DNA from: Halorarum halobium | Lineage (GTDB): Archaea > Halobacteriota > Halobacteria > Halobacteriales > Haloferacaceae | DNA length: 64,000 bases | Direction of reading: 5' to 3' | Assembly (NCBI RefSeq): GCF_032116555.1 | Contig: NZ_CP134949.1 | Location: 2,480,001 to 2,544,000, forward strand | Shown: positions 1-38,838 of the stretch, one piece after another | How positions within the stretch are numbered: the stretch's first letter is position 1 | How the letters are laid out: the number at the start of each line of letters is the position of its first letter | The notes under the pieces: generated by a model | Told to the model about the DNA's origin: nothing | Databases searched by the model: none | Seen by the model: the letters and a program-made list of their open reading frames with translations, nothing else | Position numbers and translations under genes: made by a program

Positions 1-2
1 GG

Positions 3-1079
3 GTGACCGGCGACCTGACGCCGACGATCGACCTGCTCCACGCCAGTGATCGGTACGACCTGGAGGTCCTGTTCGCCCCCCAGCACGGACTGCGTGGAAA
101 CGTTCAGGGGGAGCTCGATCGCTCGCGGTCGGTCGACGAGCGAACCGGCCTGCCCGTCCGGATCCTCTCGGATCAGAGCGAGGCCCGCATCCGCGAGTCC
201 TTCGCGGACGTCGACGTCCTGATCTACGACATGCAGGACATCGGCTGTCGGTTTTACACGCTCGTGAACACGCTCGCGATCGCGCTCAGGGAGGCTGCGG
301 CGACCGGGACGCGGCTCGTGATACTCGACCGACCGAACCCGATCGCGCCGGTGGCGCCGGAGGGCAACACCGTCCCCCCGTTCGGGACGCCCTCGCTCGA
401 CCGGTTCGACCTCCCGATCACACACGGCCTGACGGTGGGGGAACTCGCCCGCTACTTCAACGTCGAGTTCGACGTCGGGGGGGACCTCGAGGTCATCGGA
501 CTCGACGGCTGGGATCGGGACACGTGGTACGACGAAACCGACCTCCCGTGGGTCCACCCCTCCCCGAACATGCCGACGTTACAGACCGCGCTTCTGTATC
601 CGGGCACCTGTTTCTTCGAGAGCACGAACCTCTCGGAGGGGCGGGGGACGACCAAGCCCTTCGAACTCGTCGGCGCGCCGTGGATCGACGGCGAGGACTG
701 GGCGGCCACGCTGAACGACTACGACCTGTCGGGTGTCGCGTTCCGCCCCGCCCACTTCACCCCGATGTTCTCGAAGCACGAACGCAAGGACATCGAGGGC
801 GTCCAGGTGCACATCCTCGACAGGGACGAACTGGACCCCGTCGCGCTCGGGATCACGATGCTCGTTTCGACGTTCGACAGTCACGAGGAGTCGGAGTGGC
901 TCCCCTACAACGGGGGGTACTTCGTCGACAGGCTGGCCGGCGGGAGCTATCTCAGGAAGACGATCGACAACTCGGGAGACGGGGTGACTCCCGTCCACCT
1001 CGCGGAGGGGATCCGCGAGTACTGGTCGGACGACCTGGCGGCGTACATGGACGTGTATGACGAGTACCGGCTCTACTGA
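3..1079 (+). CDS. namZ: Exo-beta-N-acetylmuramidase NamZ family (DUF1343/YbbC), 5' end probably truncated by window edge
   Basis: Family motifs LFAPQHGLRG, DMQDIGCRFYT, LDRPNP, HGLTVGELA, PSPNMPT, SEGRGTTKPFE. Confidence 0.9.
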   Translation: MTGDLTPTIDLLHASDRYDLEVLFAPQHGLRGNVQGELDRSRSVDERTGLPVRILSDQSEARIRESFADVDVLIYDMQDIGCRFYTLVNTLAIALREAAATGTRLVILDRPNPIAPVAPEGNTVPPFGTPSLDRFDLPITHGLTVGELARYFNVEFDVGGDLEVIGLDGWDRDTWYDETDLPWVHPSPNMPTLQTALLYPGTCFFESTNLSEGRGTTKPFELVGAPWIDGEDWAATLNDYDLSGVAFRPAHFTPMFSKHERKDIEGVQVHILDRDELDPVALGITMLVSTFDSHEESEWLPYNGGYFVDRLAGGSYLRKTIDNSGDGVTPVHLAEGIREYWSDDLAAYMDVYDEYRLY

Positions 1080-1133
1080 TCGGGGTCCAGTCTCCCCGAG
1101 CGGCCGGGTGGTCTCCCCAGATATTACCAAACA

Positions 1134-1139
1134 TTTATG
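1134..1139 (+). promoter_or_regulatory. Putative TATA box (TTTATG) for the ABC-SBP operon
   Basis: AT-rich patch atattaccaaacatttatga, about 30 nt upstream of ATG 1169 in a GC-rich background. Confidence 0.5.
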
Positions 1140-1168
1140 ATACAGGACTAATACGCCCTATCTGCGCA

Positions 1169-2803
1169 ATGAGAACCAATCGCACGACCACCGGGACGAG
1201 CAGGCGTCGCCTCATTCGATCGGTCGGCGGGGCTGCCGTGGCGACCGCACTCGCCGGGTGTAGCTCCGACTCGGCGGGGACACCGACGACGAGCCCGGAC
1301 GACTCGGACGGGCAGACGAGCCCGTCGACGGACACGCAAGCCCAGGATTCCATCCCGACGGGCGGGACGCTGAACATCGCGACGGCGGGCGATCCACAGA
1401 ACCTCGACCCCCACACCACGACCATCAACGTCGCACAACTGGTGCTGTCGAACGTCGTGGAGGGGCTGTTCGAACTGGACGCCGACATGAACCTCACCGG
1501 CGTGCTGGCGACGGGCTATGAGGTCAGTGACGACAACCGGACGTACACCATCTCGCTCAAGGAGGGCGTCACGTTCCACACCGGGGCCGAGTTCACCTCG
1601 GCGGACGTCAGGTACTCCATCAATCGCATCCTCGACCCCGACGTCGGCTCGCCCCGTGCCGCGAACTTCTCGCTCCTCGAGTCGATCGAGACGCCCGACG
1701 ACTACACGGTCGTCTTCACGCTCTCGGAGCCGTTCGCGCCGTTCATGGTCAGCCTGACGGATACGGCGGCGATCATCCCCGAGGGGTCGGCCGAGGAACG
1801 AAACTTCCAGCAGGAGCCGGTCGGGACCGGCCAGTTCGTGCTCGACAGCTGGTCGACCGACGACAGCGTCGTCCTGCAGCGGTTCGACGACTACCACGTC
1901 GAGGACCAGCCGTACCTGGACACCTGCGAGTTCAACATCATCCCCGAGGCCGCCACGAGACAGACCCAGCTCCAGAGCGGTCCAGCAGAAGTCATGTTCG
2001 GCGTGCCGTTCCAGCAGGCCGGCGCCCTCGAGTCGGGGTCGTCGACGAACCTCCAGTCCACGTCGGGGCTCTGGAAGCAGGCGCTGTGGTTCAACACGGA
2101 CCGGGAGCCGCTCGGGGACGCCCGCGTTCGTCGGGCGATCAGTTACGCCGTCAACCGCCAGCAGCTCGTCCAGGGAGTCCTGTTCGGCCACGGCCAGGTC
2201 GCCAACTCGCCCGCGCCGCCGACGAGCGCCTGGCGTGACAGGATCGATAGCGGCCAGTCGTACGAGTACAGCCGGGAGCAGGCCAACTCGCTCCTGGACG
2301 AGGCCGGACTGGACCCGGGCTCGATCTCCCTGTCGGTCAAGGCGTCACGGACGCCGGGGACGACCTACGCGGACACGGCGACGCTCGTGCAGTCGCATCT
2401 CACCCAGCTCGGCATGGACGTCGACGTCGAGATCATGGACTTCTCGACGTGGCTCCAGGAGGCGTGGGTCGACAAGAACTACGACCTCTCGATCGGCTCG
2501 TGGTCGGGCCGGACCGACCCCGACGGCTGGTACTACCGGCAGTACCACAGCGAGGGCGCCTGGAACCGGTTCAACTACGCCAACGACGAGGTCGACCAGC
2601 TGCTTCAGGACGGCCGCACGACCGTCGACACGGACGAGCGGGCCGACATCTACAGTCAGGTCGACCGGATCGTCTCCGAGGAGCTCCCGATGACGTACCT
2701 GTACTTCCGTGAGGACATGACGGGGCTGACGCCGTCGGTCGGCGGCTACCAGCTGACCCCGACGTCCCAGGCGGAGTTCGGGACGACGTATCTCGAGCAG
2801 TGA
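1169..2803 (+). CDS. Peptide/nickel-type (family 5) ABC substrate-binding lipoprotein, Tat-exported
   Basis: SRRRLI twin-Arg signal, LAGC lipobox, Ser/Thr/Asp linker, LDPH, EGVTFH.G..FTSADV, PVGTG.F motifs. Confidence 0.92.
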   Translation: MRTNRTTTGTSRRRLIRSVGGAAVATALAGCSSDSAGTPTTSPDDSDGQTSPSTDTQAQDSIPTGGTLNIATAGDPQNLDPHTTTINVAQLVLSNVVEGLFELDADMNLTGVLATGYEVSDDNRTYTISLKEGVTFHTGAEFTSADVRYSINRILDPDVGSPRAANFSLLESIETPDDYTVVFTLSEPFAPFMVSLTDTAAIIPEGSAEERNFQQEPVGTGQFVLDSWSTDDSVVLQRFDDYHVEDQPYLDTCEFNIIPEAATRQTQLQSGPAEVMFGVPFQQAGALESGSSTNLQSTSGLWKQALWFNTDREPLGDARVRRAISYAVNRQQLVQGVLFGHGQVANSPAPPTSAWRDRIDSGQSYEYSREQANSLLDEAGLDPGSISLSVKASRTPGTTYADTATLVQSHLTQLGMDVDVEIMDFSTWLQEAWVDKNYDLSIGSWSGRTDPDGWYYRQYHSEGAWNRFNYANDEVDQLLQDGRTTVDTDERADIYSQVDRIVSEELPMTYLYFREDMTGLTPSVGGYQLTPTSQAEFGTTYLEQ

Positions 2804-2867
2804 CGATGCACGTGGAGTCCCCGAACCGGTTCGAATCGCCGATTCGCTCCCCCCCGCTGACGCCCAC

Positions 2868-3812
2868 ATGAGAAAGTACGTCATCAGACGGCTCGCCCAG
2901 TACGTCCCCGTGCTGTTCGGCGTCTCGGTCATCTCGTTCAGCATGATGCATCTGGTCGCCGGCGGTCCGGTGCGGACGATGCTGGGGACGCAGGCGACCG
3001 AGGAACAGGTCCAGCAGGTGAGAACGGAACTCGGGCTCAACGCGCCGCTGCACGAACAGTATCTCGACTGGATGTGGGGCGTCCTCCACGGCGACCTGGG
3101 CAACTCCATCATGAGCGGCAAGCCCGTCGCGGCCGAGATCGTCGCCCGCTTCCCCGAGACGTTCTGGCTGGCGGCGGGAGCGACCGTGATCTCGATCCTC
3201 ATCGGGATCCCGGCCGGGATCCTCTCGGCCACGAACCGGTACTCGAAGGTCGATTACGCGGCGACCGGCGTCGCGTTCACCGGCATCTCGATCCCCAACT
3301 TCTTCCTCGGGATCCTCCTCATCCTCCTGTTCGGGAACACGTTGAACGTCCTGCCCGTCGCCGGGTTCGTCTCCCCGCTGAAGGACCCAGTCGCGGCGGT
3401 GAAACACCTGCTGTTACCGTGGATCACCCTCGGCACGGCCCTCTCGTCGATCGTCATGCGGATGATGCGATCCAGCCTGCTGGAGGTGTTCAACGAACAG
3501 TACATCCAGGTCGCGAACGCGAAAGGGCTCTCACGCGAACTCGTCACCAACAAGCACGCGATCATGAACGCGTTGATCCCGACGGTGACGATCATCGGCC
3601 TCAACGTCGGCTACCTGCTCGGCGGGACGATCGTCGTCGAACAGATCTTCGCCATCTCGGGGCTAGGACGGCTGATCCTGAGTGCGGTGTTGAACAGGGA
3701 CTTCGTCGTGCTCCAGGGCGTACTGCTCGTCACGGCCGGGCTCTTCACGACCGTCAACTTCGTGACCGACCTCGTCTACGCGGGACTCGATCCGCGAATC
3801 GGCTACGAGTAA
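2868..3812 (+). CDS. dppB: Dipeptide/oligopeptide ABC permease (DppB/OppB)
   Basis: GDLGNS, SIPNFFLG, EAA-loop YIQVANAKGL, VEQIF..GLG, C-terminal DPRI. Confidence 0.9.
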   Translation: MRKYVIRRLAQYVPVLFGVSVISFSMMHLVAGGPVRTMLGTQATEEQVQQVRTELGLNAPLHEQYLDWMWGVLHGDLGNSIMSGKPVAAEIVARFPETFWLAAGATVISILIGIPAGILSATNRYSKVDYAATGVAFTGISIPNFFLGILLILLFGNTLNVLPVAGFVSPLKDPVAAVKHLLLPWITLGTALSSIVMRMMRSSLLEVFNEQYIQVANAKGLSRELVTNKHAIMNALIPTVTIIGLNVGYLLGGTIVVEQIFAISGLGRLILSAVLNRDFVVLQGVLLVTAGLFTTVNFVTDLVYAGLDPRIGYE

Positions 3813-3815
3813 CCA

Positions 3816-4721
3816 ATGGCTGGACAACCAACCGAATCATCGAACGCGGAATCGTCCGCCCGAACGACGCGAACGGGCGTCATCGTGCAAACGGTGATCA
3901 GGGACAAGCTGGCCATCGCCGGCCTGATCGGCCTCCTCACGATGGGCGTGCTGGCGATCTTCGGGCCGATCGTCTCCCCGTACGACCCGACGAACACGAA
4001 CCTCGCGGTCATGTTGCAGGGCCCGTCGCTCGCCCACCCGCTCGGCACCGACCGGTACGGCCGCGACATCCTCACGAGGGTGCTCGTCGGCGCACGGGTG
4101 TCGCTGTACGTCGCGTTCGTCGGCGTCGGCATCGCGACCGGCCTCGGGGTTCCCCTCGGGGCGATCGCCGGCTACTACGAGGGGCTCCTCGGGGAGACGA
4201 TCATGCGCGTGGCCGACATGGTGTTCTCCTTCCCGGCGCTGCTGCTCGCACTCGCGCTCGTGACGGTCCTCGGCCAGTCGAAGTTTAACATCGTCATCGC
4301 GATCGGCATCGTCTACTGGCCGGTGTTCGCCAGACTCACCCGCGGGAGCGTACTCTCGGTCAAGGAGGAGGACTTCATCCAGTCGTCGCGGGCGATCGGC
4401 GACGGCGACGTCCGAATCATCTTCTGGGAGATCCTGCCGAACGTCATCGCGCCGATCATCGTCCAGATCACCATCAGCCTGGCCGTCGCAGTCCTCGTGG
4501 AGAGTTCCCTCTCCTTCCTGGGGCTCGGCGTGCCCGCGCCGGAGCCGTCCTGGGGCCGGATGCTCGCGTCGAGTCGGAGCTTCATGACGCAGGCGCCCTG
4601 GTGGGTGATCGCCCCGGGCGTGTCCATCATGCTCACCGTGTTGAGCTTCAACTTCCTCGGGGACGCGCTCCGTGACGCGCTGGATCCACACCAGGAACGA
4701 CAGCTGGAAGGGAGGAACTGA
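3816..4721 (+). CDS. dppC: Dipeptide/oligopeptide ABC permease (DppC/OppC)
   Basis: HPLGTDRYGRD, ILPNV, ESSLSFLGLG, PSWG, FNFLGDALRDALDP. Confidence 0.9.
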   Translation: MAGQPTESSNAESSARTTRTGVIVQTVIRDKLAIAGLIGLLTMGVLAIFGPIVSPYDPTNTNLAVMLQGPSLAHPLGTDRYGRDILTRVLVGARVSLYVAFVGVGIATGLGVPLGAIAGYYEGLLGETIMRVADMVFSFPALLLALALVTVLGQSKFNIVIAIGIVYWPVFARLTRGSVLSVKEEDFIQSSRAIGDGDVRIIFWEILPNVIAPIIVQITISLAVAVLVESSLSFLGLGVPAPEPSWGRMLASSRSFMTQAPWWVIAPGVSIMLTVLSFNFLGDALRDALDPHQERQLEGRN

Positions 4722-4723
4722 GA

Positions 4724-5952
4724 ATGCAATCCGAATCACCGACGGCCGAACGGGCCGTCCGACACGACGAGGAACCGTTGCTCGACGTGACCGACCTCAG
4801 CGTCGAGTTCGAAACGTCCGCCGGCGCGGTACAGGCGGTCAACGGGATCGATCTCACCATCGCCCCCAACGAGACGCTGGGGGTGGTCGGCGAGAGCGGA
4901 AGCGGGAAGTCCGTCACCGCGTTGAGCCTGCTCCGACTCCTGGAGGGCTCCGCGAACGTCTCCGGCGAGGCACGGTTCCGGGGCGAAGACCTGCTCTCGA
5001 AGCCCGAGGCGGAGATGGAGGACGTCCGCGGGAACAGCATCTCGATGGTGTTCCAGGATCCGGGCTCGTCGCTGAACCCCGTCCTCACGGTCGGCGATCA
5101 GATCTCCGAGACGATCCGCACCCACCGGTCGCCGCCCGGCGAGGGGATCACCCGCCGGGAACGGAACGTCATGGGGAACCTGTTCCGGTCGAAGCGGAGC
5201 TTCAGACGGTTCGAGGAGTCCTGGGACAGGACCGTGGAACTGTTCGAACGGGTCGGCATCCCGCTCCCCGAGCAGCGAGCCCTGGAGTACCCCCACGAGT
5301 TCTCCGGCGGGATGAAACAGCGCGCGCTCATCGCGATGGCGATCTCCTGTCAGCCCGATCTCCTGATCGCGGACGAGCCGACGACCGCCCTCGACGTCAC
5401 GATCGAGGCACAGATCCTTGAGCTGATCGACGAACTCCAGTCGGAGTTCGGCACCGCCGTCCTGTTCATCACCCACGACATGGGCGTCGTCCGGAAGGTG
5501 TGTGACCGGGTCGCGGTCATGTACGCCGGCAGCGTCGTCGAGAACGCGCCGACCGAGGAGCTGTTCGAGCAGCCGAAACACCCCTACACGGAGTCGCTCC
5601 TCCGGAGCGTCCCGCGCCTCGACGGCACGGACGAACTGGACCCGCTCTCGGGGAGCGTCCCCGACCTGACGCAGCTTCCGTCCGGCTGTCCGTTCGCGCC
5701 GCGCTGCCCGGCCGAGAACGACGCGTGCCACACGGCGTTCCCGCCCGCGTACTCGGTGACCGCCGGGAGCGAACCGTTGCCGGTCACCGCCCGGGAAGCG
5801 GACGGCGACGCGGTGACCGACGTTCCGCCCGGTCGACGCGAGACGGCGACCGACCACCTGGTCAACTGCGTGCTGTACGGCGACGCGGACCACCTGACCG
5901 CCCGTGACCCGACGGGGTCCCGGTCGGACGACCGACCGGAGGGGGTCGACCG

Positions 5953-5956
<4 letters not shown>
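4724..5956 (+). CDS. dppD: Oligopeptide ABC ATPase (DppD)
   Basis: Walker [39 protein letters not shown]. Confidence 0.92.
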
Positions 5957-7037
<1,081 letters not shown>

Positions 7038-7038
<1 letters not shown>

Positions 7039-8111
7039 TGAGCGGGTCGCGTTCGCTCTCGACCCTCCTCCGGCGGGGGGTCGAAGCGGACGCGTACGTC
7101 GGCGCGGCCGCGGCGGTCGGCGACGCCGACGGCGGACTCGCCGTCGACTGCGTCGGGTTCGAGGACGAACGGGGCGGCGACCCGGTCACCCGGGAGACCA
7201 GGTTCGACGTCGCCTCGCTCACGAAGCCCGTGGTCACGACGACCGTCTGTGCGCGGCTCCTCGAGCGGGACACCGTCCAGTTGTGGGCTCCGCTCGCGGA
7301 GTACGTGCCGCCGCTCGAGGGGACGGCTCGGGGGGAGATTCCCCTCCGCGACCTGCTGTGTCACACCTCCGGGCTCCCCCCCTACAAGTCGTTCCCGTTC
7401 GGCTGGGAGTCGCCCGAGGCGCTCCGCGAGTCGCTGTACACGAGTCACCTCGGACTGCTCGCGGACCCCGGGGAGTGGTTCGTGTACAGCGATCTCAACT
7501 TCGTCCATCTGGCCGACGCGCTCGCTCGGGCGGCCGGCGAGTCGCTGTCGAGTCTCGCCTCCGCGCACGTGTTCGACCCGCTCGGGATGGAGCGCGCCTC
7601 GCTCGGCCCGCTCGAAGCGACCAGCGACGTCGCAGCGACGCGCGATCACCGCTGGCGGAACGAACGGCTTCGGGGCGAGATCCACGACTACATCGGTGCC
7701 GTCCTGGGGGCGGAAAGCGGGAACGCCGGGCTGTTCGCGACGATCGAGGACCTGACGCCCGTCGCGCGGATGCTCCTCGGCGATGGCGCCCTGGACGGGA
7801 GCCGCGTCCTCTCGGCGTCGACGGTCCGCCGGCTGACCTCGAATCAGACGCCGGACGCGGATCGTCCACACGGGCTCGGCTGGCGGCTACCACACGACGG
7901 GTCGCCGAGCGGGCCCTGGTCGGAGCGATCGTTCGGCCACACCGGGTTCACCGGCACGTCGATCTGGATCGATCCCGACGCCGGCCGGTTCGCGATCCTG
8001 CTGACCAACCACCTGTTGACCGGGGAATCAAGTACCGAGCTTTCGAACGTCCGAGCGAAATTCCACGCCGCCGTCGCCGACGGCGGTGACGAGCTGCTAT
8101 CCAATGACTGA
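7038..8111 (+). CDS. Serine hydrolase of beta-lactamase class C fold, AmiE/YbbE-like (putative MurNAc-L-Ala amidase)
   Basis: FDVASLTK (SxxK), LLCHTSG, YSDLNF, GNAGLF, FGHTGFTGTSIWID; TGATG coupling to dppF; no signal peptide. Confidence 0.8.
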
Positions 8112-9291
8112 ACCACACGACACGATCCGCGCCGTCGGCCTGATGTCGGGGACGTCCCTCGACGGCGTCGACGGCGCCTGCTGTACGATCGACCGAACCG
8201 CGACCGACGACCCGTTCGGGTACGACGTCACCCTCGAGTCGTTCGTGACCGTTGCGTATCCGCCCGCGCTCCGTGACCGGCTGGTCGCCGTCTGTGACGA
8301 CGAGACCGGGACCGTGGACGACGTCTGTCGTCTCAACGTCGGTCTCTGTGAAGTGCTCGCCGACGTCGCGGAGCGGGCGTGGACCGAGGCCGGACACGAG
8401 CGGTCGGCCGTCGACGTCATCGGGAGCCACGGACAGACCATCTGGCACATCCCCGCCGAGGAGCCGGTTCCCGGGTACGAGCGGGCGAGCAGGTCGACGC
8501 TCCAGATCGGCGACGGGAGCGTCCTGAGCGCCCGCACCGGCGTCCCGACGGTCTCGGACTTCCGGATGCGCGACGTCGCCGCGGGCGGACACGGCGCCCC
8601 GCTCGCGCCGTTCATGGACGCGACCCGCTTCGCCGGCGAGTCGGCGTTCCGGGCCGTCCAGAACGTCGGCGGCATCGGAAACTGCACGCTCCTCCCCCCG
8701 AACCCGACGATGGACAACGTGACGGCGTTCGACACCGGCCCGGGGAACATGGTGATCGACGCCGTGGTCGAACTGCTGACCGACGGGGCGGAGACGTACG
8801 ACGTCGACGGCGAGCTCGCGGCACGCGGCTCGGTCGACGAGGGGCTCCTCGAGACGCTGCTGGCGGACGACTACTTCGCGGAGGCCCCGCCAAAATCCAC
8901 CGGGCGGGAGTACTTCGGCCACGAGTACGCGAGGACCGTCATCGAAGCGGGCCGCGAGCGAGGCCTCGACGACGAGGATATCGTCGCCACGGCGACGATG
9001 CTGACCGCGGCATCGATCGACGCCGCCTATCGGGACTTCGCCGACCGGTATCCGGACGAGATCTACGTCTGTGGCGGCGGCGCGTCGAACCCGACGCTCC
9101 TCGAGTTCCTCCGGACGCGGACGGACGCGCCCGTCGCCCGACTGCAGGAGCTCGGCATGGATGCGGACGCGAAGGAGGCCGCGATGTTCGCGCTGTTCGC
9201 GGCGACGAACTGCTGGGGGGAGCCGAACAACGTCCCGTCCGCGACGGGCGCCGACGGCCCGGTCAGCATGGGGAAGGTCTCCCGGCCATGA
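8104..9291 (+). CDS. anmK: Anhydro-N-acetylmuramic acid kinase
   Basis: GLMSGTSLDGVD, SHGQTIWH, TLQIGD, DFR.RDVAAGGHGAPL, NVGGIGN, FDTGPGN, PPKSTGRE, GGGASN, KEA. Confidence 0.95.
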   Translation: MTEPHDTIRAVGLMSGTSLDGVDGACCTIDRTATDDPFGYDVTLESFVTVAYPPALRDRLVAVCDDETGTVDDVCRLNVGLCEVLADVAERAWTEAGHERSAVDVIGSHGQTIWHIPAEEPVPGYERASRSTLQIGDGSVLSARTGVPTVSDFRMRDVAAGGHGAPLAPFMDATRFAGESAFRAVQNVGGIGNCTLLPPNPTMDNVTAFDTGPGNMVIDAVVELLTDGAETYDVDGELAARGSVDEGLLETLLADDYFAEAPPKSTGREYFGHEYARTVIEAGRERGLDDEDIVATATMLTAASIDAAYRDFADRYPDEIYVCGGGASNPTLLEFLRTRTDAPVARLQELGMDADAKEAAMFALFAATNCWGEPNNVPSATGADGPVSMGKVSRP

Positions 9292-10019
9292 GCGACCGCC
9301 TCGAGGGGCTCCTCCCCGACCCGGACGCGATCCCGGCGTCGGGTCCCGGTCCCGCGCTCGTCGTGTTCGACTTCGACGGCACGCTCGCCGAACAGCGCGG
9401 GAGCTGGGGCCTGCTCTACCGCCTGTTCGGCGTCGAACCCGACGGCGTGGACCGCACCGACGCCTACTGGGACGGCGACCTGTCGTTCCAGTCGTGGTGT
9501 GAGGGCAACGTCGCCGACTGGCGCGAGCGGGGCGTCACGGCTTCACACCTGCGACGCGCGGCCGAGGCGATCAAGCTCACGGAGGGGGCCGGTGACCTCC
9601 TGGAAACGCTCTCGGCGGGCGACGTGCCGTTCGGCGTCCTGAGCAGCGGCGTGCTCGATCTGATGGCGCGGATCGAGACGCACGACCCGGCCTTTATCGT
9701 GTCCAACGAGATCCTGTACGAGGACGGCGTCCCGGTGGACGTCAGGGCACACGTCGGCCCCGACGACAAGGGGGAGCTCCTCCGGCGGCTCTGTGCCGCG
9801 GTCGACGTCGATAGCGAGGACGTCGTCTACGTGGGCGACTCCCACTCCGACGTCGAGGCGTTCGAGGTCGCCGGCACCGCCGTGCTGTTCGACCCCGACG
9901 ATCGGATCGAGGAGGACCAGTACGACCTCGTCGACCACCTGCAGACGCGTCGGGACCTCGCGGAACTCGTCGACGTGATTCCCGTGCCCGGACCCCCGTC
10001 GTCCGGACACGAAACCTAG
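9288..10019 (+). CDS. HAD-superfamily (IB, PSP-like) phosphatase
   Basis: VVFDFDGTL motif I, VLSSG motif II, Lys motif III, VGDSHSD motif IV; ATGA overlap with anmK. Confidence 0.85.
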   Translation: MSDRLEGLLPDPDAIPASGPGPALVVFDFDGTLAEQRGSWGLLYRLFGVEPDGVDRTDAYWDGDLSFQSWCEGNVADWRERGVTASHLRRAAEAIKLTEGAGDLLETLSAGDVPFGVLSSGVLDLMARIETHDPAFIVSNEILYEDGVPVDVRAHVGPDDKGELLRRLCAAVDVDSEDVVYVGDSHSDVEAFEVAGTAVLFDPDDRIEEDQYDLVDHLQTRRDLAELVDVIPVPGPPSSGHET

Positions 10020-10046
10020 TTGGTGGCCCGCGCTCTCACCGTGCGT

Positions 10047-10424
10047 ATGGAGGAAGTCAGTACGGATGAGGCTCCTGCGAGCATCGGGCCGTTCTCACAG
10101 GCGATTCGGGACGGGGACACCGTGTACGTCTCCGGACAGGGCCCGGTCGACCGGTCCGGGGAGATCGTCGGCGACGACGTCGCCGAACAGACGGCCCGGA
10201 CGCTGGAGAACGTCGACGCCGTCCTCCGGGCGGCCGGCGGGTCGCTGGACGACGTCGTCAAGGCGACCGTCTTCGTTCGGGACATGGACGCGTACGACGT
10301 CGTCAACGAGGTGTACGCCGAGTCGTTCAGCCCCCCGTTCCCGGCCCGCAGCGCCGTCGAAGTCCGCGATCTCCCGATCGACATCGAGGTGGAGATCGAG
10401 GTGATCGCGAGCATCCCCGAGTGA
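10047..10424 (+). CDS. ridA: RidA/YjgF reactive enamine/imine deaminase
   Basis: APASIGPFSQA, VSGQGP, NEVY, FPARSAVEV, VEIE. Confidence 0.88.
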   Translation: MEEVSTDEAPASIGPFSQAIRDGDTVYVSGQGPVDRSGEIVGDDVAEQTARTLENVDAVLRAAGGSLDDVVKATVFVRDMDAYDVVNEVYAESFSPPFPARSAVEVRDLPIDIEVEIEVIASIPE

Positions 10425-10464: not shown

Positions 10465-11268
10465 CTACCGATTCCGCTCGTGAACCGTGCGTAGCAACTC
10501 CTCGAGTTCCGTCCGGACCGCCTCGAACATCTCGGCGCCCTTCTCACGGTCAGCCAGGGCCGGGTCGCCGATCGCGCCGGAGTCGGAGTAGGCGTCGAAC
10601 CCACGGTAGACGGACACCGGACCGCCGACGAGCAGGTCCTGTCGCCCCCCTTCGTACGGCTCGTCCAGGTACGTTCCGTCGGCGAGCTCCTCCCTGACGA
10701 GGTCGGGAAACAGGTGGAGCATCAGCGACGTTTCGAACTCCCCGCCGTGAGCCATCCCGCCGGGGTCGCTGTCCCGGAGCTCGGTGATCGCCTCAGTCGC
10801 CAGTTCGAAGTACGTCACCCCGAGCACCTCCGCCGACTCGTTCGCCCGTCCGACCGTGTTCACCACCGTGGAAACGAGCGAGGTGTTCCCGCCGTGCCCG
10901 TTGATCAGCACCATCGCGTCGAACCCGTTGTCGAGCGCGGAGGTGCTGAGCTCCTCGAGAAGCGCGTGTGCCGTCTCGAACTCGGCCGTCATGGTCCCGC
11001 CGAACGGGAGGTGGTGAGACGAGAGGCCGCTCCACACCGTCGGCGTCACGAGGAGCGGAACCTCGTCGACGAGCCGGTCGGCCGTCCGGTTCGATACCTC
11101 CCCGGCGAGGAGACTGTCGGTGCCCACCGGGAGGTGGTCGCCGTGCTGTTCGACGCTCCCGAGCGGGACGACGAGAATCGATCCCTCCCGCCCGGCGATT
11201 TCACGGATCTCCGAGGCGGTGCGTGTCAGCCACGCCGCGTCGCCGCCGGTCAGCAAGCTCTGAACCAT
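10465..11268 (-). CDS. Creatininase-family amidohydrolase
   Basis: GSVEQHGDHLPVGTD, SSHH.PFGGT, NGHGGN, HGGEFETS. Confidence 0.9.
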   Translation of the reverse strand: MVQSLLTGGDAAWLTRTASEIREIAGREGSILVVPLGSVEQHGDHLPVGTDSLLAGEVSNRTADRLVDEVPLLVTPTVWSGLSSHHLPFGGTMTAEFETAHALLEELSTSALDNGFDAMVLINGHGGNTSLVSTVVNTVGRANESAEVLGVTYFELATEAITELRDSDPGGMAHGGEFETSLMLHLFPDLVREELADGTYLDEPYEGGRQDLLVGGPVSVYRGFDAYSDSGAIGDPALADREKGAEMFEAVRTELEELLRTVHERNR

Positions 11269-11908: not shown

Positions 11909-13204
11909 TCAGAGGGTCGGCAGGAACAGCGCGATCGAGGGGAAGAAGACGATGAGCAGGATGACGAGGAGGATCGGGACGTAGAAGGGGATGACCGCGC
12001 GCACGATCTCCTCGATCTTCGCGTCCGTGACCTTCTCCAGGACGAACAGGATGACCCCGAGCGGGGGCGTCAGCAGGCCGAGCATCAGCGTCAGCACCAT
12101 CACGATCCCGAAGTGCAGCGTGTCGATGCCGGCGATGGTGAGGACCGGGAGGAGGATCGGGACGAGGATCGTGATCGCCGCCATCGTCTCGAGGAACGTC
12201 CCGACGACGAGCAGCACGAGCACGAGCAGCAGGAGGATCATCGTCGGGTCGCTCGTCAGTCCGGTCAGGGCTTCCGCGATGAAGATCGGCAGCTGGAGCT
12301 GGAGCGCGATCAGCCCGTAGAGGGCGGCCACGCCGACGATGAACATGAGCGCGAACGTCTCCACCATGCTGTCCCGCGTCTCGAGGTAGAGCCCGTGGAG
12401 GTCGAGTTCGCCGTAGTAAAAGCCCATGGCGATCACGTAGATGACCGCGATCGCGCCGGCCTCGGTCGCCGTGAACCACCCGCTGAGGATCCCGCCGATG
12501 ATGAGAACCGGGGTGAGTAGCGGTAGCAGTGCGGCCTTGAAGCTCTCGACCGCCTCCTCGGTCGTGAACGCGTCGCCGCCCTCGTAGCCGCGGTGCACGA
12601 CCATCAGCATCACGAACGCCATCAGCAGGAGGCCGATGAGCACGCCCGGAACGATCCCGGCGATGAACAGGTCGCCGATCGACTCCTCGGCGAGGATGCC
12701 GTAGATGATCATGACGACGCTCGGCGGGATGATCGGCCCGATGACCGCCGACGAGCCGGTGACGCCCAGCGAGATGTCCTTGTCGTACCCCTCGTCCCGC
12801 ATCGCCTTGTACTCGACGCGGCCGAGCCCGGCGGCGTCGGCGACGGCCAGCCCGGACATGCCCGAGAAGATCATGCTCGCCACGATGTTCACGTAGGCGA
12901 TCCCGCCGCGGAACTGGCCGACGAGCGCGGTCGCGAAGCGGAAGATGCGTTCGGTCAGCCCGATCCGGTTCATCAACCGGCCGAGCAGGAGGTAGAACGG
13001 AACTGCGAGAATGGTGAAGCTGTTGACGCCGAACAGCAACTGGGAGGCGATCAGCTCGTAGTTCAGCCCGCGGCCGAACGGCGAGACCATGATGAGCACG
13101 CTCGTCACGCCCATCGCGACCGCGACGGGGACGCCCATGAGGTAGAGCAGCAGCACCCCGCCGAGGAAGATGGTGAGGATCAACCCCAGTTCGGGGACGA
13201 TCAC
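11909..13204 (-). CDS. dctM: TRAP transporter large permease
   Basis: Polytopic hydrophobic protein; FSGMSGLAVADAA, IIPPS, TATEAG, LLTPPLG. Confidence 0.92.
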   Translation of the reverse strand: MIVPELGLILTIFLGGVLLLYLMGVPVAVAMGVTSVLIMVSPFGRGLNYELIASQLLFGVNSFTILAVPFYLLLGRLMNRIGLTERIFRFATALVGQFRGGIAYVNIVASMIFSGMSGLAVADAAGLGRVEYKAMRDEGYDKDISLGVTGSSAVIGPIIPPSVVMIIYGILAEESIGDLFIAGIVPGVLIGLLLMAFVMLMVVHRGYEGGDAFTTEEAVESFKAALLPLLTPVLIIGGILSGWFTATEAGAIAVIYVIAMGFYYGELDLHGLYLETRDSMVETFALMFIVGVAALYGLIALQLQLPIFIAEALTGLTSDPTMILLLLVLVLLVVGTFLETMAAITILVPILLPVLTIAGIDTLHFGIVMVLTLMLGLLTPPLGVILFVLEKVTDAKIEEIVRAVIPFYVPILLVILLIVFFPSIALFLPTL

Positions 13205-13743
13205 GAGTCGACCCCCGAACCGTCCGTCGACGTCGGCTCAGCCCGGAGCAGTCCGACGAGCGTGCGCGCCTCGTAGACGGCCAGCAGGACGAACGCGAGA
13301 CAGATCCCGAGATACAGCATGCCCGACGTGATCACCTGGACGGAGCCGAACTGGTCGCCCCACGTCCCGCCGGCCATCGTCGCCGTCCCCCGGATGACGA
13401 TCAGCGCGAACGCGAGAACGATCACCGAGACGACGACGTCCAGCAGGCGCTTGGCGCGCGGGGACCGTTCCGCCAGCCGGTTCGGGAAGTAGTCCATCCT
13501 GATGTGCTCGTCGTTGCGCGTGGCGACGGCCGCGCCGACGTACGTCGCGATGACGAGACAGTATCTCGCCAGCGGCTCCGTCCAGTGGAACGGGATTCCG
13601 GCCACCTGAACGTCCAGCAGGCGGACGACCACCTGCACCGTGGCGAGAAGGATCGTCAGCGTAAACAGGAGGGTCCCGAGCGCGATCACGCCCCTGTCGA
13701 ACCACGACTCGACGTGCAGGTCGAGGTTTTGTGTCGTGCTCAT
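13201..13743 (-). CDS. dctQ: TRAP transporter small permease
   Basis: About 4 TM segments, WTEPLARY, EHIRMD; overlaps dctM start. Confidence 0.88.
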   Translation of the reverse strand: MSTTQNLDLHVESWFDRGVIALGTLLFTLTILLATVQVVVRLLDVQVAGIPFHWTEPLARYCLVIATYVGAAVATRNDEHIRMDYFPNRLAERSPRAKRLLDVVVSVIVLAFALIVIRGTATMAGGTWGDQFGSVQVITSGMLYLGICLAFVLLAVYEARTLVGLLRAEPTSTDGSGVDS

Positions 13744-13819
13744 GCGTACCTGTGGGCTCTGCCGGCACCCATATGAATCGTGCGGGTGAGTGGCGAGGGG
13801 TTCCTGGTCGGGTCCCGGC

Positions 13820-14917
13820 TCACATCTGCTGGACTTCTTCCCAGGTTCCGGCCCAGGTCGACTCGAACAGCCCGTTGATCGCCGGCGTCGCCGCCGACTT
13901 GAACGCCTCGACGTCGACGTCGCGGACGATCGTCATCCCGTTCGATTCGAGCTGGTTGATCGTCTCCTCCTCGGTCTCGATCCCGATCTCGGCGGCCTCC
14001 GCGGTCGCCTCGAACCCGAGTTCGATGACGAGCTCCTGGTAGGTCGGGTCGAGCCCCTGGTAGAACTCCTCGTTGATCCAGAGGTTCCGGTTGCCGACCA
14101 TCTGTTTCGTGAGGTTGAGGTGGGACTGCACCTCGTTGAGCTTCGAGGACTCGACGAGGTTCGCGTCGACGGCCGCGCCGTCCGCGGTCCCCGTCTGCAG
14201 TCCGCTGTAGATCTCGTTGCCCGGGATCGAGGTGGGGTTGACGCCGATCTCCTGCCACACCTCGACCCAGGCGTCGATGCCGGGCAGCCGCAGCTTCATC
14301 CCCTGCACGTCCTCGGGCGTCCTGACCGCCGAGTTGGCGGTGACGTTCCGCCGGCCGACGTACACGGGCTGGCCCATGACCCGGAGGCCGTTCTCGGCGG
14401 CGATCTTGTCGTACACCTCCTCCTGGATCATGTCGCTCTCCATCACCCGCAGGAGGTGGTCGTAGTCTTCCATCACGTAGGGGCTCGACGTGTACCAGTG
14501 TTCGGTCGCGTACAGGAAGATCGGGATCGGGCCGACCCCCATCCCCTCCAGGCCGCCCTGGGCGGCCGTCTGGGTCATCTCGACCTCGCCGCCGTACGCG
14601 CCGCCGGGGACGTGGTTCACCGAGAACCGGCCGTCGGTCTCGGCTTCGATCTTCTCCTTGAACCGGGCGATGGCGATGTTGTCGATGCTGCCCGACTGGA
14701 ACGAACTGGCGAACGTCGCCGTCACCTCCGGGAGCGACTCGTAGTCGTTCCCGGACTCGCTCGTGGTCGTGCCGTCCCCGCCGCCGCTTTCGGTGTCGCT
14801 CTCGGTCGGTTCCGCGGTGTCCGATCCGCCGCCTGTACATCCAGCCGAGCCGATTACCCCCGCGACGGCTGTCGAACCGAGGACCCGCCGCCGGGTGATT
14901 CCGTTGTGCTTTGTCAT
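13820..14917 (-). CDS. dctP: TRAP substrate-binding lipoprotein (Tat)
   Basis: TRRRVL twin-Arg, SAGC lipobox, DVQGMKLRLP, EIYSGLQTG.ADG. Confidence 0.9.
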   Translation of the reverse strand: MTKHNGITRRRVLGSTAVAGVIGSAGCTGGGSDTAEPTESDTESGGGDGTTTSESGNDYESLPEVTATFASSFQSGSIDNIAIARFKEKIEAETDGRFSVNHVPGGAYGGEVEMTQTAAQGGLEGMGVGPIPIFLYATEHWYTSSPYVMEDYDHLLRVMESDMIQEEVYDKIAAENGLRVMGQPVYVGRRNVTANSAVRTPEDVQGMKLRLPGIDAWVEVWQEIGVNPTSIPGNEIYSGLQTGTADGAAVDANLVESSKLNEVQSHLNLTKQMVGNRNLWINEEFYQGLDPTYQELVIELGFEATAEAAEIGIETEEETINQLESNGMTIVRDVDVEAFKSAATPAINGLFESTWAGTWEEVQQM

Positions 14918-15108
14918 GGTTGTCTCCGTGCCTGCTCGCGGACCCCGCACACCGTTCGGCGCGTGCGACGTCGTGTGTCGAACGATCCTGGTCCGCGTTA
15001 CCAACTGTCCTCTCCTGCTCACTGGTGATAAACGTAGTGGAAAATATCTCCGGGGCGACGTTGAATTTTTCGGAAAAGGTGATTAGCGGGCCGCGTGAGA
15101 CGGGAGAC

Positions 15109-16326
15109 ATGGCGGATCACGAGTTCAGACACTGGTACGGCCCGACCGAACTGACGGCCGGTCCCGGGTGCGTCGAAGCCCTCGATCGCGCCGTGCGCGA
15201 GGCGGGCGGGTCGAGCGCGCTGGTCGTCGCGGGTCGGTCGGTCAGCCAACAGCCGGCGGTGATGGACCCGATCCTGGCGGGCCTCGGCGACGCGTACGCG
15301 GCGACGTTCACCGAGGTGACCGCGGACAAGACGTACGAGTCGGTTCGGGCGGCGGCCGCGCGGGTGCGCGAGGACGGCATCGACGCCGTCGTCGGCGTCG
15401 GCGGCGGCGGTTGCATGGACGCCGCGCGGGCCGTCAGTGTCGTCGCAGCCCATCCCGAGGCCGACCCGCAGTCGCTCTTTGCCGACGTCGACGAGCGCGG
15501 GGAACTCACGCTCTCCAGGCTCCCGAACGCGCCGCTCCCGGTGGTCGAAGTGCCGACGACGCTCTCGGGCGCGGAGGTGACGTGTGCGGCCGGGATGAAC
15601 GTCGTGGACCCCGACGGGGGACACGTCGTCCGCACCGCGCCGATCATCCACCCCGACATCTGGCCGGCCGCGATCTTCTACGACCCGGAACTCGCCGTCG
15701 AGACCCCCGAGCGGGTGATCACCACCTCGGCCATGAACGGGCTCGACCACGGGATCGAGATGCTCTACTCGCGCAACGCGATCCCGATGACGGACGCGAC
15801 CGCGGCCCACGGCGTCCGCGTGCTCTCGGATGCGCTCCCGCGGCTCGGCGCGAACCCCGACGACGTCGACGCGATGGGCGACGCGATGGTGGGCGTGGCG
15901 CTCTCGACCACCGGGCTCATCGACCCCACCAGCGGGCCCAAGTACTCGATCGTCCACGCGTTCGGTCACCAGCTCGCCCAGCAGTGCGGCGTCCAGCAGG
16001 GGCTCGCACACGGGGTGATGGCCCCCGACGTGCTCGCGTACGTGTTCGAGAACGTGGACGGCCGCCGGGACCTGCTGGCGGACGCGCTGGGCGTCGACGC
16101 GGGCGGGACGGCCGTGGAGACCGGGGACGCCGTCGTCGAGGCGGTCCGGGACGTCAGGGACGGGCTCGGGCTCCCGTCCCGACTGCGCGACCTGGACGCG
16201 GTGGATCGGGCGGAGTTCGACGCGCTCGGCGCGGCGATCGAGGGCGACATCGGCCTGACGTTCGCGCCCGAGGGGCTCGACCCCACCCCCGAGTCGCTGA
16301 CTCGCGTGCTCGAACGCGCCTGGTGA
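15109..16326 (+). CDS. Iron-containing (group III) alcohol dehydrogenase family protein
   Basis: GVGGGGCMDAAR, VPTTLSGAE, NGLDHGIE, VHAFGHQL, HG metal ligands. Confidence 0.88.
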   Translation: MADHEFRHWYGPTELTAGPGCVEALDRAVREAGGSSALVVAGRSVSQQPAVMDPILAGLGDAYAATFTEVTADKTYESVRAAAARVREDGIDAVVGVGGGGCMDAARAVSVVAAHPEADPQSLFADVDERGELTLSRLPNAPLPVVEVPTTLSGAEVTCAAGMNVVDPDGGHVVRTAPIIHPDIWPAAIFYDPELAVETPERVITTSAMNGLDHGIEMLYSRNAIPMTDATAAHGVRVLSDALPRLGANPDDVDAMGDAMVGVALSTTGLIDPTSGPKYSIVHAFGHQLAQQCGVQQGLAHGVMAPDVLAYVFENVDGRRDLLADALGVDAGGTAVETGDAVVEAVRDVRDGLGLPSRLRDLDAVDRAEFDALGAAIEGDIGLTFAPEGLDPTPESLTRVLERAW

Positions 16327-16336
16327 GGCGGCGATA

Positions 16337-16355
16337 CGTTCGACAGCATCGAACG
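16337..16355. promoter_or_regulatory. Palindromic operator CGTTCGA-N5-TCGAACG, copy 1
   Basis: cgttcga cagca tcgaacg, immediately before TTTATC TATA-like box of the IclR gene. Confidence 0.7.
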
Positions 16356-16387
16356 ATTTATCACGGTCGAAGACACATCGTTCCGGT

Positions 16388-17152
16388 ATGACCGAGGGCG
16401 ACTCACTCACGATCAAATCCGACCGGACGTTACTCTCGATTCTCACGGTGCTCGGCGACAGGGAGCGCGCGGGCGTGACCGAGATCGCCTCGGAGATCGG
16501 CCGCGCGAAAAGCACGGTTCACGGCCACCTGCAGTCGCTGCGCGAGGCGGGGCTCGTGGTCAGGGACGGCGACGAGTACCGGCTCAGCCTCGCGTTCCTG
16601 AACTTCGGGAAGGGCGTCCAGACCACGCATCCGATCTACGAGGTGGCGGAGCCGAAAGTCGACGAACTCGCGGAGATCTCGAAGGAGAAGGCGTGGTGTT
16701 TCGTCGAGCAGCGCGGCTACGCCGTCTACCTCCTGGGCAGCCAGGGCGAGAACGCGACGAAGACCCCGGCGCGCGTCGGCCACCACAGGCACATCCACCA
16801 GCTCGCCGGCGGGAAGGCGATCCTCGCGCACCTCCCCGAGGACCGGCTCGCGGAGATCATCGCCGACCACGGCCTGCCGTCGGCGACCTCACACACGATC
16901 ACCGACGAGTCGGCGCTCCGCTCGGAGCTGGAGGCGATCCGGGAGCGCGGGTTCTCGCTCAACGTGGAGGAGGCCATGACCGGGCTCAACGCCATCTCGG
17001 TTCCGGTCCTCGACGTCGAGGGAGGCGTGTACGGCGCGCTCAGCATCGGCGGGCCAGCCCACCGCCTGACGCGCGAGCACATGGAAGAGGAACTCGCACC
17101 GATGCTGCTCGGGATCGCGAACGAGGTGGAGATCAACATCAGACACTGGTGA
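16388..17152 (+). CDS. IclR-family transcriptional regulator
   Basis: HTH GVTEIA....AKSTVHGHL, GGKAILAHLP, TITD...LRSELE.IRERG, ALSIGGP. Confidence 0.93.
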   Translation: MTEGDSLTIKSDRTLLSILTVLGDRERAGVTEIASEIGRAKSTVHGHLQSLREAGLVVRDGDEYRLSLAFLNFGKGVQTTHPIYEVAEPKVDELAEISKEKAWCFVEQRGYAVYLLGSQGENATKTPARVGHHRHIHQLAGGKAILAHLPEDRLAEIIADHGLPSATSHTITDESALRSELEAIRERGFSLNVEEAMTGLNAISVPVLDVEGGVYGALSIGGPAHRLTREHMEEELAPMLLGIANEVEINIRHW

Positions 17153-17160
17153 GCCGCAAC

Positions 17161-17179
17161 CGTTCGACGACATCGAACG
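17161..17179. promoter_or_regulatory. Palindromic operator CGTTCGA-N5-TCGAACG, copy 2
   Basis: cgttcga cgaca tcgaacg. Confidence 0.65.
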
Positions 17180-17287
17180 CCCGTTTGGGCCTTCTATTAC
17201 AACGCTAATGCTGTAATTCTCTCGAACGATCACCGGGAATCCCGCGAGCGAACCGTCGGGACGCCGTTCGGGGGTCCCCGCGGCACG

Positions 17288-17306
17288 CGTTCGACAGCGT
17301 CGAACG
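17288..17306. promoter_or_regulatory. Palindromic operator CGTTCGA-N5-TCGAACG, copy 3
   Basis: cgttcga cagcg tcgaacg, upstream of the cupin gene (TTTATG at about 17374). Confidence 0.65.
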
Positions 17307-17403
17307 CCCGCGCTCGTGGCCACGGCAGGGCGGGACGGAACCTGTCCGGCGAGCGACCCGTGGCTGAGCGAAGATTTATGGGTACCGGTGCGAGAGAGCG
17401 AGC

Positions 17404-17934: not shown

Positions 17935-18119
17935 GTCTCCCGGGGCGGACGGCGACGAACTGAGGGCGGACGGCGACGGATTGCGACGGACGACGACGAA
18001 CGAGCGGGGCGCGGCCGACCGGCGTGATCGGTTCCGCGAGTCGCCCGTATGGCGCTTCCGCGCGGACCGGGAACCGCGACGAGCGGTACCTTCTTACCGT
18101 CCCTCCCCGAGCATTTCCC

Positions 18120-22401: not shown

Positions 22402-22521
22402 GTCACCATAGAACACTCAGGGTATAATAAAAACACTGAATAATTACGGGTTGATTTCGACACAAAATTGGGTGGGTGTCGGGTCCACCGGACCGTCGGT
22501 GAGACGGCGAAACGGGGGGAT

Positions 22522-37838: not shown

Positions 37839-38043
37839 TCTCCTCGTCCGCGGGCGACGCAGTCCGGACGCCGACGGAGGGTGCTGTTTGCCGCACGGTT
37901 GCCGGTCGAACGGTGTCGGTCGCGTGGCCCCAGGACCTGATGGCTCACGACTTCGACGTCGCACTCCGTCCGGAAACACTCGCTGCTAGCTGTACTGACA
38001 GTTCACGCCGCCGGTACTCACGGGGATACGCGTGATCGATCAC

Positions 38044-38817: not shown

Positions 38818-38838
38818 GGGCGACCTGGGTGCTCCGCG

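Follow-up and report, generated by a model that had tools for sequence, protein, structure and literature searches.

A gene cluster predicted to scavenge bacterial peptidoglycan fragments in the haloarchaeon Halorarum halobium, with a possible MurQ-independent lower route

Haloarchaea, Halorarum halobium included, make no peptidoglycan wall. What, then, might be the role of a cluster of genes on the chromosome of this organism whose products belong to families of peptidoglycan recycling? The cluster lies at one end of the stretch of DNA that we analyzed (64,000 nucleotides, G000:C1:2480001-2544000, where G000 is the H. halobium genome and C1 its 3.32-Mb contig; hereafter the window). It encodes NamZ, a Dpp-type ATP-binding cassette (ABC) importer, a beta-lactamase-fold serine hydrolase and the anhydro-sugar kinase AnmK, followed by candidate catabolic enzymes. 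Judged from gene content and comparison with other genomes, the cluster very probably scavenges bacterial peptidoglycan fragments. We lean slightly toward a further proposal, that N-acetylmuramic acid (MurNAc) is degraded by an oxidative route that bypasses MurQ and leads to 2-keto-3-deoxygluconate (KDG).

An earlier annotation made from the nucleotide sequence alone (the sequence-only reading) had described ten genes at window positions 3-10424. These ten open reading frames (ORFs) are intact and co-oriented, and their families are as it named them. The Pfam domains, in order, are NamZ_N+NamZ_C, SBP_bac_5, two BPD_transp_1, two ABC_tran+oligo_HPY, Beta-lactamase, AnmK, HAD and RidA, and profile searches thus confirm the NamZ, AnmK and Beta-lactamase assignments. 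The system extends beyond that interval: namZ itself is cut by the window edge, and five genes further upstream and one downstream on the opposite strand bring the cluster to 16 genes, with all 16 ORFs intact (Table 1). The genes from dppC through the HAD phosphatase gene had been described as abutting or overlapping. This is correct for dppD/dppF (ATGA), dppF/serine hydrolase (TGATG), serine hydrolase/anmK (8-nt overlap) and anmK/HAD (ATGA); dppC and dppD lie 2 nt apart. There are gaps of 3 nt between dppB and dppC and of 30 nt between the HAD gene and ridA, and the gene for a glycoside-hydrolase-like barrel of an unnamed family (the orphan barrel) overlaps the enolase gene by ATGA. AT-rich, TATA-like stretches, read directly in the sequence, precede both namZ and dppA, so a single transcript for the cluster is not assured.

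The ten genes are genuine and adapted to the host, as the sequence-only reading had surmised, and they lie on an archaeal chromosome. A 16S match on the contig that carries them is archaeal and full-length (1599 bits), and the genome is 99.9% complete and 0.28% contaminated. The soluble cluster proteins contain 14-22% aspartate plus glutamate, and G+C content at third codon positions (GC3) is 0.83-0.92; the genome medians, from 3162 heuristically called ORFs, are 17% and 0.90. The solute-binding protein has the twin-arginine translocation (Tat) motif S11-RRRLI and the lipobox L28-AGC31, both read directly. The closest named homologues are from Halobacteria, and the same cluster is found in named plasmid records of cultured haloarchaea, including Halorussus and Haladaptatus (these records may overlap the genomes surveyed below and are not in the counts). 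The gene families are mainly bacterial, as would be expected of bacterial contamination or a chimeric assembly. Given the 16S match on the same contig, the low contamination and the host-like acidity and GC3, contamination is ruled out, and we give this explanation almost no weight.

Related clusters recur across the Halobacteria, a check that the sequence-only reading had put forward. We found anmK in 13 of 400 Halobacteria genomes, spread over five families, and namZ in 15 of the same genomes, including all 13 with anmK; the two further namZ carriers are G331 and, as a fragment, G225. Among 60 relatives, three have anmK, and neither same-genus genome does. Regions of 13-60 kb around the loci were fetched and mapped by tblastn, with some clusters cut by contig ends or split. 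This gave 16 clusters for comparison (G000, G018, G100, G122, G133, G146, G178, G205, G220, G227, G228, G274, G331, G356, G360 and G367), after setting aside G017 (anmK and HAD only), the divergent AnmK of G048, the second AnmK of G274 and the second namZ locus of G356. Within the 16 loci, the orphan barrel was present in 15, the enolase and the creatininase-family gene in 13 each, nagZ in 12 and RidA in 10. An enolase orthologue was found in all 16 cluster genomes, in three of them elsewhere in the genome, outside the locus. Related clusters also carry PGRP/Amidase_2 amidases, GH18, a Tat-GHL10 protein, PIG-L and a DgaE-like pyridoxal-phosphate (PLP) enzyme, and in one relative an NlpC/P60 gene adjoins a gene resembling that of Ala-Glu epimerase (below cut-off). 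NlpC/P60 genes were present in 9 of 18 cluster genomes and in 18 of 241 genomes of the class sample. The Tat-signal GHL10 protein of relatives (L025:7636-9375) is a possible secreted wall-lytic enzyme. Two more orphans occur at L023:15208-16203 and L025:15867-16274, one of them GHL10-like by language-model features.

The upper part of the cluster resembles bacterial loci. We scanned up to 10 kb around anmK in 80 mostly bacterial loci and found NamZ at 22, the serine hydrolase at 19, nagZ at 18 and dppB at 12; many of these loci are peptidoglycan-recycling clusters. The enolase and creatininase each appeared once, at low identity, and the orphan barrel was not seen within that distance. These counts suggest that the upper module, including the ABC importer, is bacterial-like and that the lower module is haloarchaeal. 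The haloarchaeal AnmK sequences form one group for 18 of 20 rows (SH-aLRT 99), which sits among Bacillota with weak support. The haloarchaeal NamZ sequences likewise form one group (21 rows, support 100), with the long-branch G048 copy outside, as do the cluster serine hydrolases (SH-aLRT 99). Such single-group trees are consistent with one acquisition and patchy spread; because the bacterial AnmK sample comprises the best 80 of at least 600 candidates, we name no donor. Another haloarchaeal AnmK lineage, divergent at 35% identity, is represented at L034:9361-10569 and L037:9425-10567, one copy adjoining an elongation factor 2 gene.

Placing the importer beside anmK is not itself new. The sequence-only reading had inferred import and catabolism of muropeptides, with the ABC importer as the novel feature. 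Scavenging is upheld by the co-occurrence of anmK with namZ and by the peptidoglycan-related partners in relatives; the claim for the importer is not, given the Dpp-type genes beside anmK in bacterial loci and the published ABC import of muropeptides. ABC import together with AnmK also occurs in bacteria, and the novelty lies in the lower pathway. The YejBEF-YepA system of Agrobacterium (PMC9790009) likewise imports muropeptides by an ABC transporter in place of AmpG; it recycles the cell's own wall, and we liken it to the host importer by function, not orthology.

Is the substrate really derived from peptidoglycan? The kinase belongs to the AnmK family (PF03702, 325 bits; NCBIfam equivalog NF007148, 428 bits against a cut-off of 387), and the motifs GTSxDG, HGQT, DFR and FDTGPGN are all present, as the sequence-only reading had stated. 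Its FD210TGPGN and KE358 motifs presumably contain the counterparts of Asp182 and Glu326 of Pseudomonas aeruginosa AnmK. In that enzyme Asp182 is catalytic and Glu326 binds Mg (PMC10570956). The motifs SLTK, YSD and HTG of the beta-lactamase fold are present in the serine hydrolase, which had no match in the Protein Data Bank (PDB) at E 1e-15; PDB searches with the SDR-family enzyme, the solute-binding protein and the enolase gave no characterized close relative.

Several observations count against a system for MurNAc-containing fragments. The kinase scores 273 bits against fungal levoglucosan kinase and 182 against Pseudomonas AnmK. One genome, G017, has an anmK-HAD pair alone (L195:4524-6373), between housekeeping genes, and neither namZ nor the cluster enolase was found in that genome. 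In H. halobium itself no nagZ was found and no KHFPGHG-type motif occurs in six frames, a search for a secreted lytic enzyme gave no Amidase_2 and M23 only below cut-off (other hydrolase families were not searched), and NamZ lacks its putative catalytic Glu. In addition, genomes that share a mobile cluster are not independent, and co-transferred genes are non-independent observations.

The kinase scores, the NamZ variants (Gln or Thr at the Glu position), the GH18 chitinases of some clusters and the lone pair in G017 would fit a broader function, in which AnmK and NamZ have shifted from MurNAc and the cluster scavenges N-acetyl-amino sugars or anhydro-sugars in general (chitin, glycosaminoglycans, archaeal glycans or levoglucosan). 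A Paenibacillus AnmK encoded in a namZ cluster ranks likewise, however (245 bits against levoglucosan kinase, 188 against Pseudomonas AnmK), so this score is not diagnostic, and we set it aside as a sign of levoglucosan use. The PGRP/Amidase_2, NlpC/P60, nagZ and epimerase-like partners and the many bacterial AnmK loci that are peptidoglycan-recycling clusters also point to peptidoglycan, and we consider a general sugar function improbable.

The NamZ motifs, which the sequence-only reading had taken to be intact, are not: PEHG reads PQHG (codon CAG, window position 81). Gln57 thereby replaces the residue that matches Glu92 of Bacillus subtilis NamZ, which was assigned as putatively catalytic, at the tip of strand 2, through a homology model (PMC8054146). 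Glu is kept at this position in 112 of 119 homologues. The two closest relatives (78% and 69% identity) share the Gln, which rules out a sequencing error, and they lie in a branch with support 100. R244, the equivalent of the conserved Arg279 (same offset of 35), is present in 119 of 119 homologues, and E236 and E242 are invariant as well. Where at least 90% of 42 homologues share a residue, the host NamZ departs at five positions besides Gln57. NamZ is of a non-Glu type in three of the four nagZ-less clusters, and the family varies in specificity (bioRxiv 2021.12.02.470905).

These departures, the lack of nagZ and the absence of anmK from both same-genus genomes could indicate that a peptidoglycan-scavenging island is decaying in this host and that the cluster is what remains of it. 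Such a loss, of dppA to anmK by deletion, is seen in a related cluster on a plasmid: in Haladaptatus pallidirubidus (L155:19340-20172), the start of the solute-binding protein gene abuts the end of anmK, through deletion of most of anmK together with the importer and serine hydrolase genes. Against decay, all 16 ORFs of the host cluster are intact, the Gln is common to relatives on a fully supported branch, and raw pN is below pS in every gene compared, NamZ included (pS is near saturation). We therefore think decay very unlikely. The comparison suggests that the host NamZ is a maintained Gln variant with probably changed or reduced activity.

Scavenging in a host without nagZ would probably concern monosaccharide-level fragments. 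Free 1,6-anhydroMurNAc (anhMurNAc) accumulates in B. subtilis supernatants (PMC8054146), which makes such fragments plausible food. A host GH3 protein was rejected as NagZ, with only 32% identity over 206 amino acids and no KHFPGHG-type motif. Neither NamZ nor the NlpC/P60 protein has a signal peptide by eye, so fragment breakdown is probably cytoplasmic.

How would MurNAc be degraded? A regulator, nagZ and murQ were looked for upstream; an IclR regulator is present there, and nagZ and MurQ were not found in the genome. No MurQ passed the cut-off in any of 17 anmK genomes (best 35 bits, cut-off 302), and NagA was found in none of 18 cluster genomes (E 1e-10); two of the genomes searched are incomplete (53% and 78%). 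The same MurQ search passes in four of five non-halophile genomes that carry this AnmK family: one from Brevibacillus and three archaeal ones, namely two Culexarchaeia and a Nitrososphaera bin. A Bathyarchaeia bin gave a partial match. The absence is thus specific to the haloarchaea searched and does not reflect a blind spot of the search. With the usual enzyme missing, the route is probably a different, oxidative one. In Culexmicrobium a MurQ-type SIS gene lies inside a namZ-nagZ-anmK cluster. A canonical version of the system is seen in other archaea, the Culexarchaeia, where genes for a BadF-type kinase, murQ, namZ, nagZ and anmK lie together; the Nitrososphaera and Bathyarchaeia bins also have anmK (L045:3555-11149, L052, L063 and L104 for these archaea).

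We infer the substrates and the order of the lower steps from the gene content, co-occurrence, absences, motifs and fold that were observed. The Dpp importer would take up small fragments, either free anhMurNAc or peptides linked to anhMurNAc or MurNAc. Their stem peptide would be removed by the serine hydrolase and cut by the NlpC/P60 enzyme. AnmK would open 1,6-anhMurNAc to MurNAc 6-phosphate (MurNAc-6P), from which the HAD phosphatase would remove the phosphate, so that the pair would act as an ATP-driven opener of the anhydro ring giving free MurNAc. The SDR (an LLM-family enzyme in other clusters) would oxidize C1 of MurNAc to give N-acetylmuramonate, with the orphan barrel possibly opening the lactone. 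The enolase would abstract the C2 proton of N-acetylmuramonate and eliminate D-lactate from C3, which is MurQ chemistry shifted to the aldonate level. The creatininase-family enzyme would deacetylate the resulting enamide, and RidA would hydrolyze the enamine/imine to KDG. KDG would enter the host KDG kinase (509 bits, cut-off 440) and 2-keto-3-deoxy-6-phosphogluconate (KDPG) aldolase, Eda (194 bits, cut-off 156), both found in this genome.

The order from anhMurNAc to KDG is suggested jointly by a ranking of enolases, gene replacements, recurrence of the module in other loci, the distribution of PIG-L with nagZ, and the KDG kinase and Eda. For the ranking, 54 of 401 genomes matched at 1e-90, and four candidates per genome were scored. 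By similarity to the H. halobium enolase, the top 14 of 400 genomes were the 13 anmK carriers and G331. In an enolase tree the cluster copies formed one branch (15 of 39 rows, support 87/93), with G360 and G228 dropped because their genes are split between fetched regions. Residues distinctive of this branch are mostly at positions 24-105. K165, K167, D195, E223, N248 and H299 are invariant in the 39 rows, a pattern (KxK, Asp-Glu-Asn, His) that we take to be the signature of glucarate-type acid-sugar dehydratases. The enolase reaches the cut-off of no characterized enolase family. We rejected it as an L-Ala-D/L-Glu epimerase (69 bits, cut-off 500; N248 instead of Asp as third ligand).

Two steps appear to be filled by interchangeable, non-orthologous genes. 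Among the 15 anmK clusters, HAD-IB is present in six and HAD-IA in six, never together, and three have neither. Each of the 16 clusters has exactly one type of dehydrogenase, an SDR in 10 and an LLM enzyme in 6; both types are present at two further loci (the second locus of G356 and another). The cluster SDRs form one group (SH-aLRT 92). These exchanges point to required phosphatase and dehydrogenase steps. PIG-L and DgaE-like genes accompany nagZ in 8 of the 12 clusters that have it and are in none of the four nagZ-less clusters, as expected if they handle N-acetylglucosamine (GlcNAc) and the enolase route handles MurNAc. This pair of genes agrees with the published route for N-acetylglucosaminate, in which deacetylation precedes elimination (PMC9537276). 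In this genome, tblastn gave no match with a DgaE-like query (E 1e-8) or with haloarchaeal D-aminoacylase or alanine-racemase-like queries (E 1e-10; OngB and OngC themselves were not used).

The enolase and creatininase genes, often with RidA, lie side by side in many other haloarchaeal catabolic loci. The locus HVO_RS03090-03140 of Haloferax volcanii and one in H. hispanica encode an IclR regulator, a sugar ABC transporter, creatininase, a distant orphan barrel, enolase, SDR and RidA, and the H. volcanii locus also holds a KDPG aldolase gene. These loci, on H. volcanii pHV4 (L156:5541-16473; probably HVO_A0280-A0290) and in H. hispanica (L160), form an uncharacterized sister module that also includes eda or HAD. 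In H. halobium a second enolase (55% identical) occurs with creatininase, RidA and a Dpp ABC transporter at G000:C1:332900-348100, together with, by eye, FAH-like, MlrC-like and aminotransferase genes; from its gene content this appears to be the same eliminate-deacylate-RidA module for another substrate.

The orphan barrel has no Pfam or NCBIfam match, and 1786 representatives match it at E 0.001. Its model (pLDDT 94) is a glycoside-hydrolase-like TIM barrel, and the nearest folds are Cwp19 (Z 25.5, root-mean-square deviation 3.2, 285 aligned, 13% identity), then fucosidase and PgaB. In 80 rows, H38, W103 and H108 do not vary, and E162, H171, H179 and four Cys are almost invariant; in comparison with the catalytic acids of GHL10/Cwp19-like enzymes, there is one conserved acid (E162) with several His. 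Every one of the 15 genomes with a full cluster in the class sample has it. Bacterial contexts of the family come from Rhizobium, where it lies beside SDR, deacylase, RidA and PLP enzyme genes, and from one Nonomuraea locus that is mostly unassigned. A plasmid of Natrinema zhouii (L162) carries heparinase, GH3, GH20, sulfatase, orphan barrel, PIG-L, PLP lyase and D-aminoacylase genes, a cluster likely used by this archaeon for glycosaminoglycans. The presence of the barrel there and in genomes with neither anmK nor namZ indicates that it is not MurNAc-specific. From the gene neighborhoods and the model it looks like a shared amino-sugar step; our best guess is a lactonase, with a hexosaminidase second.

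Several results weigh against the enolase route in particular. The gap between ranks 14 and 15 is small (1e-143 and 1e-138), the ranking scored only four candidates per genome, the clade support of 87/93 is below the starred level, close enolase relatives (50-56%) occur without any MurNAc gene, and, of the 26 genomes (among 401) that have the close barrel type, 11 have neither anmK nor namZ. Scavenging could thus be right and the lactyl ether broken in another way: the barrel or another gene product would be a non-homologous etherase acting on MurNAc or MurNAc-6P, or the 6-phosphate would be the form that is oxidized, with GlcNAc or stem-peptide D-amino acids as the substrates for which the enolase, creatininase and RidA are used. 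In keeping with this, the barrel accompanies every full cluster and has no assigned function, the LLM enzymes resemble F420-dependent sugar-phosphate dehydrogenases such as glucose-6-phosphate dehydrogenase, no HAD was seen in two of the LLM clusters, and genes for the enolase, creatininase and RidA recur in unrelated contexts. On the other hand, the barrel type occurs in those 11 genomes and in the glycosaminoglycan cluster, whereas the enolase subtype tracks anmK and namZ; GlcNAc appears to have its own route through PIG-L and the DgaE-like enzyme; and the Asn ligand and low epimerase score argue against a stem-peptide enzyme. We regard this alternative as rather unlikely. The full combination, in which haloarchaea feed on bacterial peptidoglycan by a new MurQ-independent route (oxidation of MurNAc, enolase as lyase, creatininase as deacetylase, RidA to KDG), with the orphan family of about 1,800 clusters as lactonases and the H. 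volcanii sister module acting on a related amino sugar, seems to us evenly balanced between true and false.

Parts of the proposed enolase route have precedents. In the E. coli/Pseudomonas AnmK route, too, AnmK followed by an HAD phosphatase gives free MurNAc, the phosphatase in Pseudomonas being MupP. Pseudomonas re-uses this MurNAc for wall synthesis; here there is no such wall, and a dehydrogenase, enolase, deacylase and RidA follow. The NamZ-NagZ-AmiE/MurP-MurQ recycling of B. subtilis (PMC8054146) shares with the cluster a NamZ gene, a beta-lactamase-fold hydrolase, nagZ (in relatives) and MurNAc as carbon source. It differs in that the haloarchaeal host has no peptidoglycan, no evident signal peptides, ABC import with AnmK, no MurQ or NagA found, and Gln in place of Glu92. 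The ong pathway of Pseudoalteromonas strain ACAM 620 (PMC9537276) converts N-acetylglucosaminate (GlcNAc1A), an N-acetyl-hexosaminate, to KDG, acetate and ammonia without prior phosphorylation; RidA (OngD) is essential and KDG kinase follows, and both are encoded in this genome. That pathway deacetylates first (D-aminoacylase) and then eliminates with a PLP enzyme, whereas here the enolase would eliminate first, with lactate as the leaving group. A chemical likeness is offered by 3,6-anhydro-L-galactonate cycloisomerase (SCO3480/VejACI; PMC9706016), an enolase-superfamily enzyme that, after a dehydrogenase, cleaves an aldonate at its C3 ether, yielding the 2-keto-3-deoxy acid 2-keto-3-deoxygalactonate (KDGal); it belongs to another subgroup (Glu as third ligand, Asn here), and its ether is intramolecular with no amino group.

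Haloarchaea that act on bacterial peptidoglycan have been described, with secreted killing enzymes unlike the cluster proteins (PMC12352652). That 2025 report infers uptake from Opp-MppA homologues and leaves open the use of peptidoglycan as food by archaea; NamZ, DUF1343 and "recycling" do not occur in its main text. We found no description of this system in the open-access literature; supplements, including those of PMC12352652, may list these genes. The cluster names genes and cultured strains for the question of archaeal peptidoglycan feeding. To our knowledge, cleavage of the lactyl ether of MurNAc is known only from MurQ. If the lower route is true, it would be a second way to break this ether and would assign functions to an enolase subgroup not yet characterized, to proteins of the creatininase family and to a protein family that has no name. 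Turnover of the carbon and nitrogen of cell walls in saline soils and sediments would then include a further, cross-domain step.

Table 1. Genes of the cluster in H. halobium, with positions on contig C1 or in the window
Gene or product	Position	Strand	Basis
SH3-NlpC/P60 peptidase	C1:2474062-2475039	-	Pfam; DCSG232/H278 motifs present
SDR, proposed MurNAc 1-dehydrogenase	C1:2475517-2476338	+	Pfam
IclR regulator	C1:2476654-2477418	+	Pfam
Enolase-superfamily enzyme, proposed N-acetylmuramonate lactate-lyase	C1:2477539-2478657	+	Pfam, motifs
Orphan glycoside-hydrolase-like TIM barrel, 387 aa, proposed lactonase or hexosaminidase	C1:2478654-2479817	+	structure model
namZ (GH171 family), 388 aa	window 1..1079 (ATG at G000:C1:2479913, 88 nt before window)	+	NamZ_N 216 bits, NamZ_C 156 bits
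Family 5 solute-binding lipoprotein (SBP, dppA)	window 1169..2803	+	PF00496; Tat motif, lipobox
dppB, dppC, dppD, dppF: ABC permeases and ATPases	window 2868..7038	+	Pfam
Beta-lactamase-fold serine hydrolase, candidate MurNAc-L-Ala amidase	window 7038..8111	+	PF00144; S60xxK, Y150, H301TG
anmK, anhydro-sugar kinase, 395 aa	window 8104..9291	+	PF03702, NF007148
HAD-IB phosphatase, proposed MurNAc-6P phosphatase	window 9288..10019	+	family profiles, motifs
RidA-family enamine/imine deaminase	window 10050..10424	+	PF01042; TIGR00004 above cut-off
Creatininase-family amidohydrolase, proposed N-deacetylase of enamide intermediate	window 10465..11268	-	PF02633; EQHGDH, HGGN, HGGEFE

The creatininase gene is followed, at window positions 11909-19652, by genes for a TRAP transporter (dctPQM, minus strand), an Fe-containing alcohol dehydrogenase, a second IclR regulator, a cupin and an AMP-binding ligase. 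This stretch was not seen in related clusters and is probably a separate catabolic unit. Elsewhere in the window, where G+C content is about 0.68, it dips to 0.61 at positions 22001-24000 and 42001-44000 and peaks at 0.75-0.76 at positions 38001-40000 and 46001-48000.

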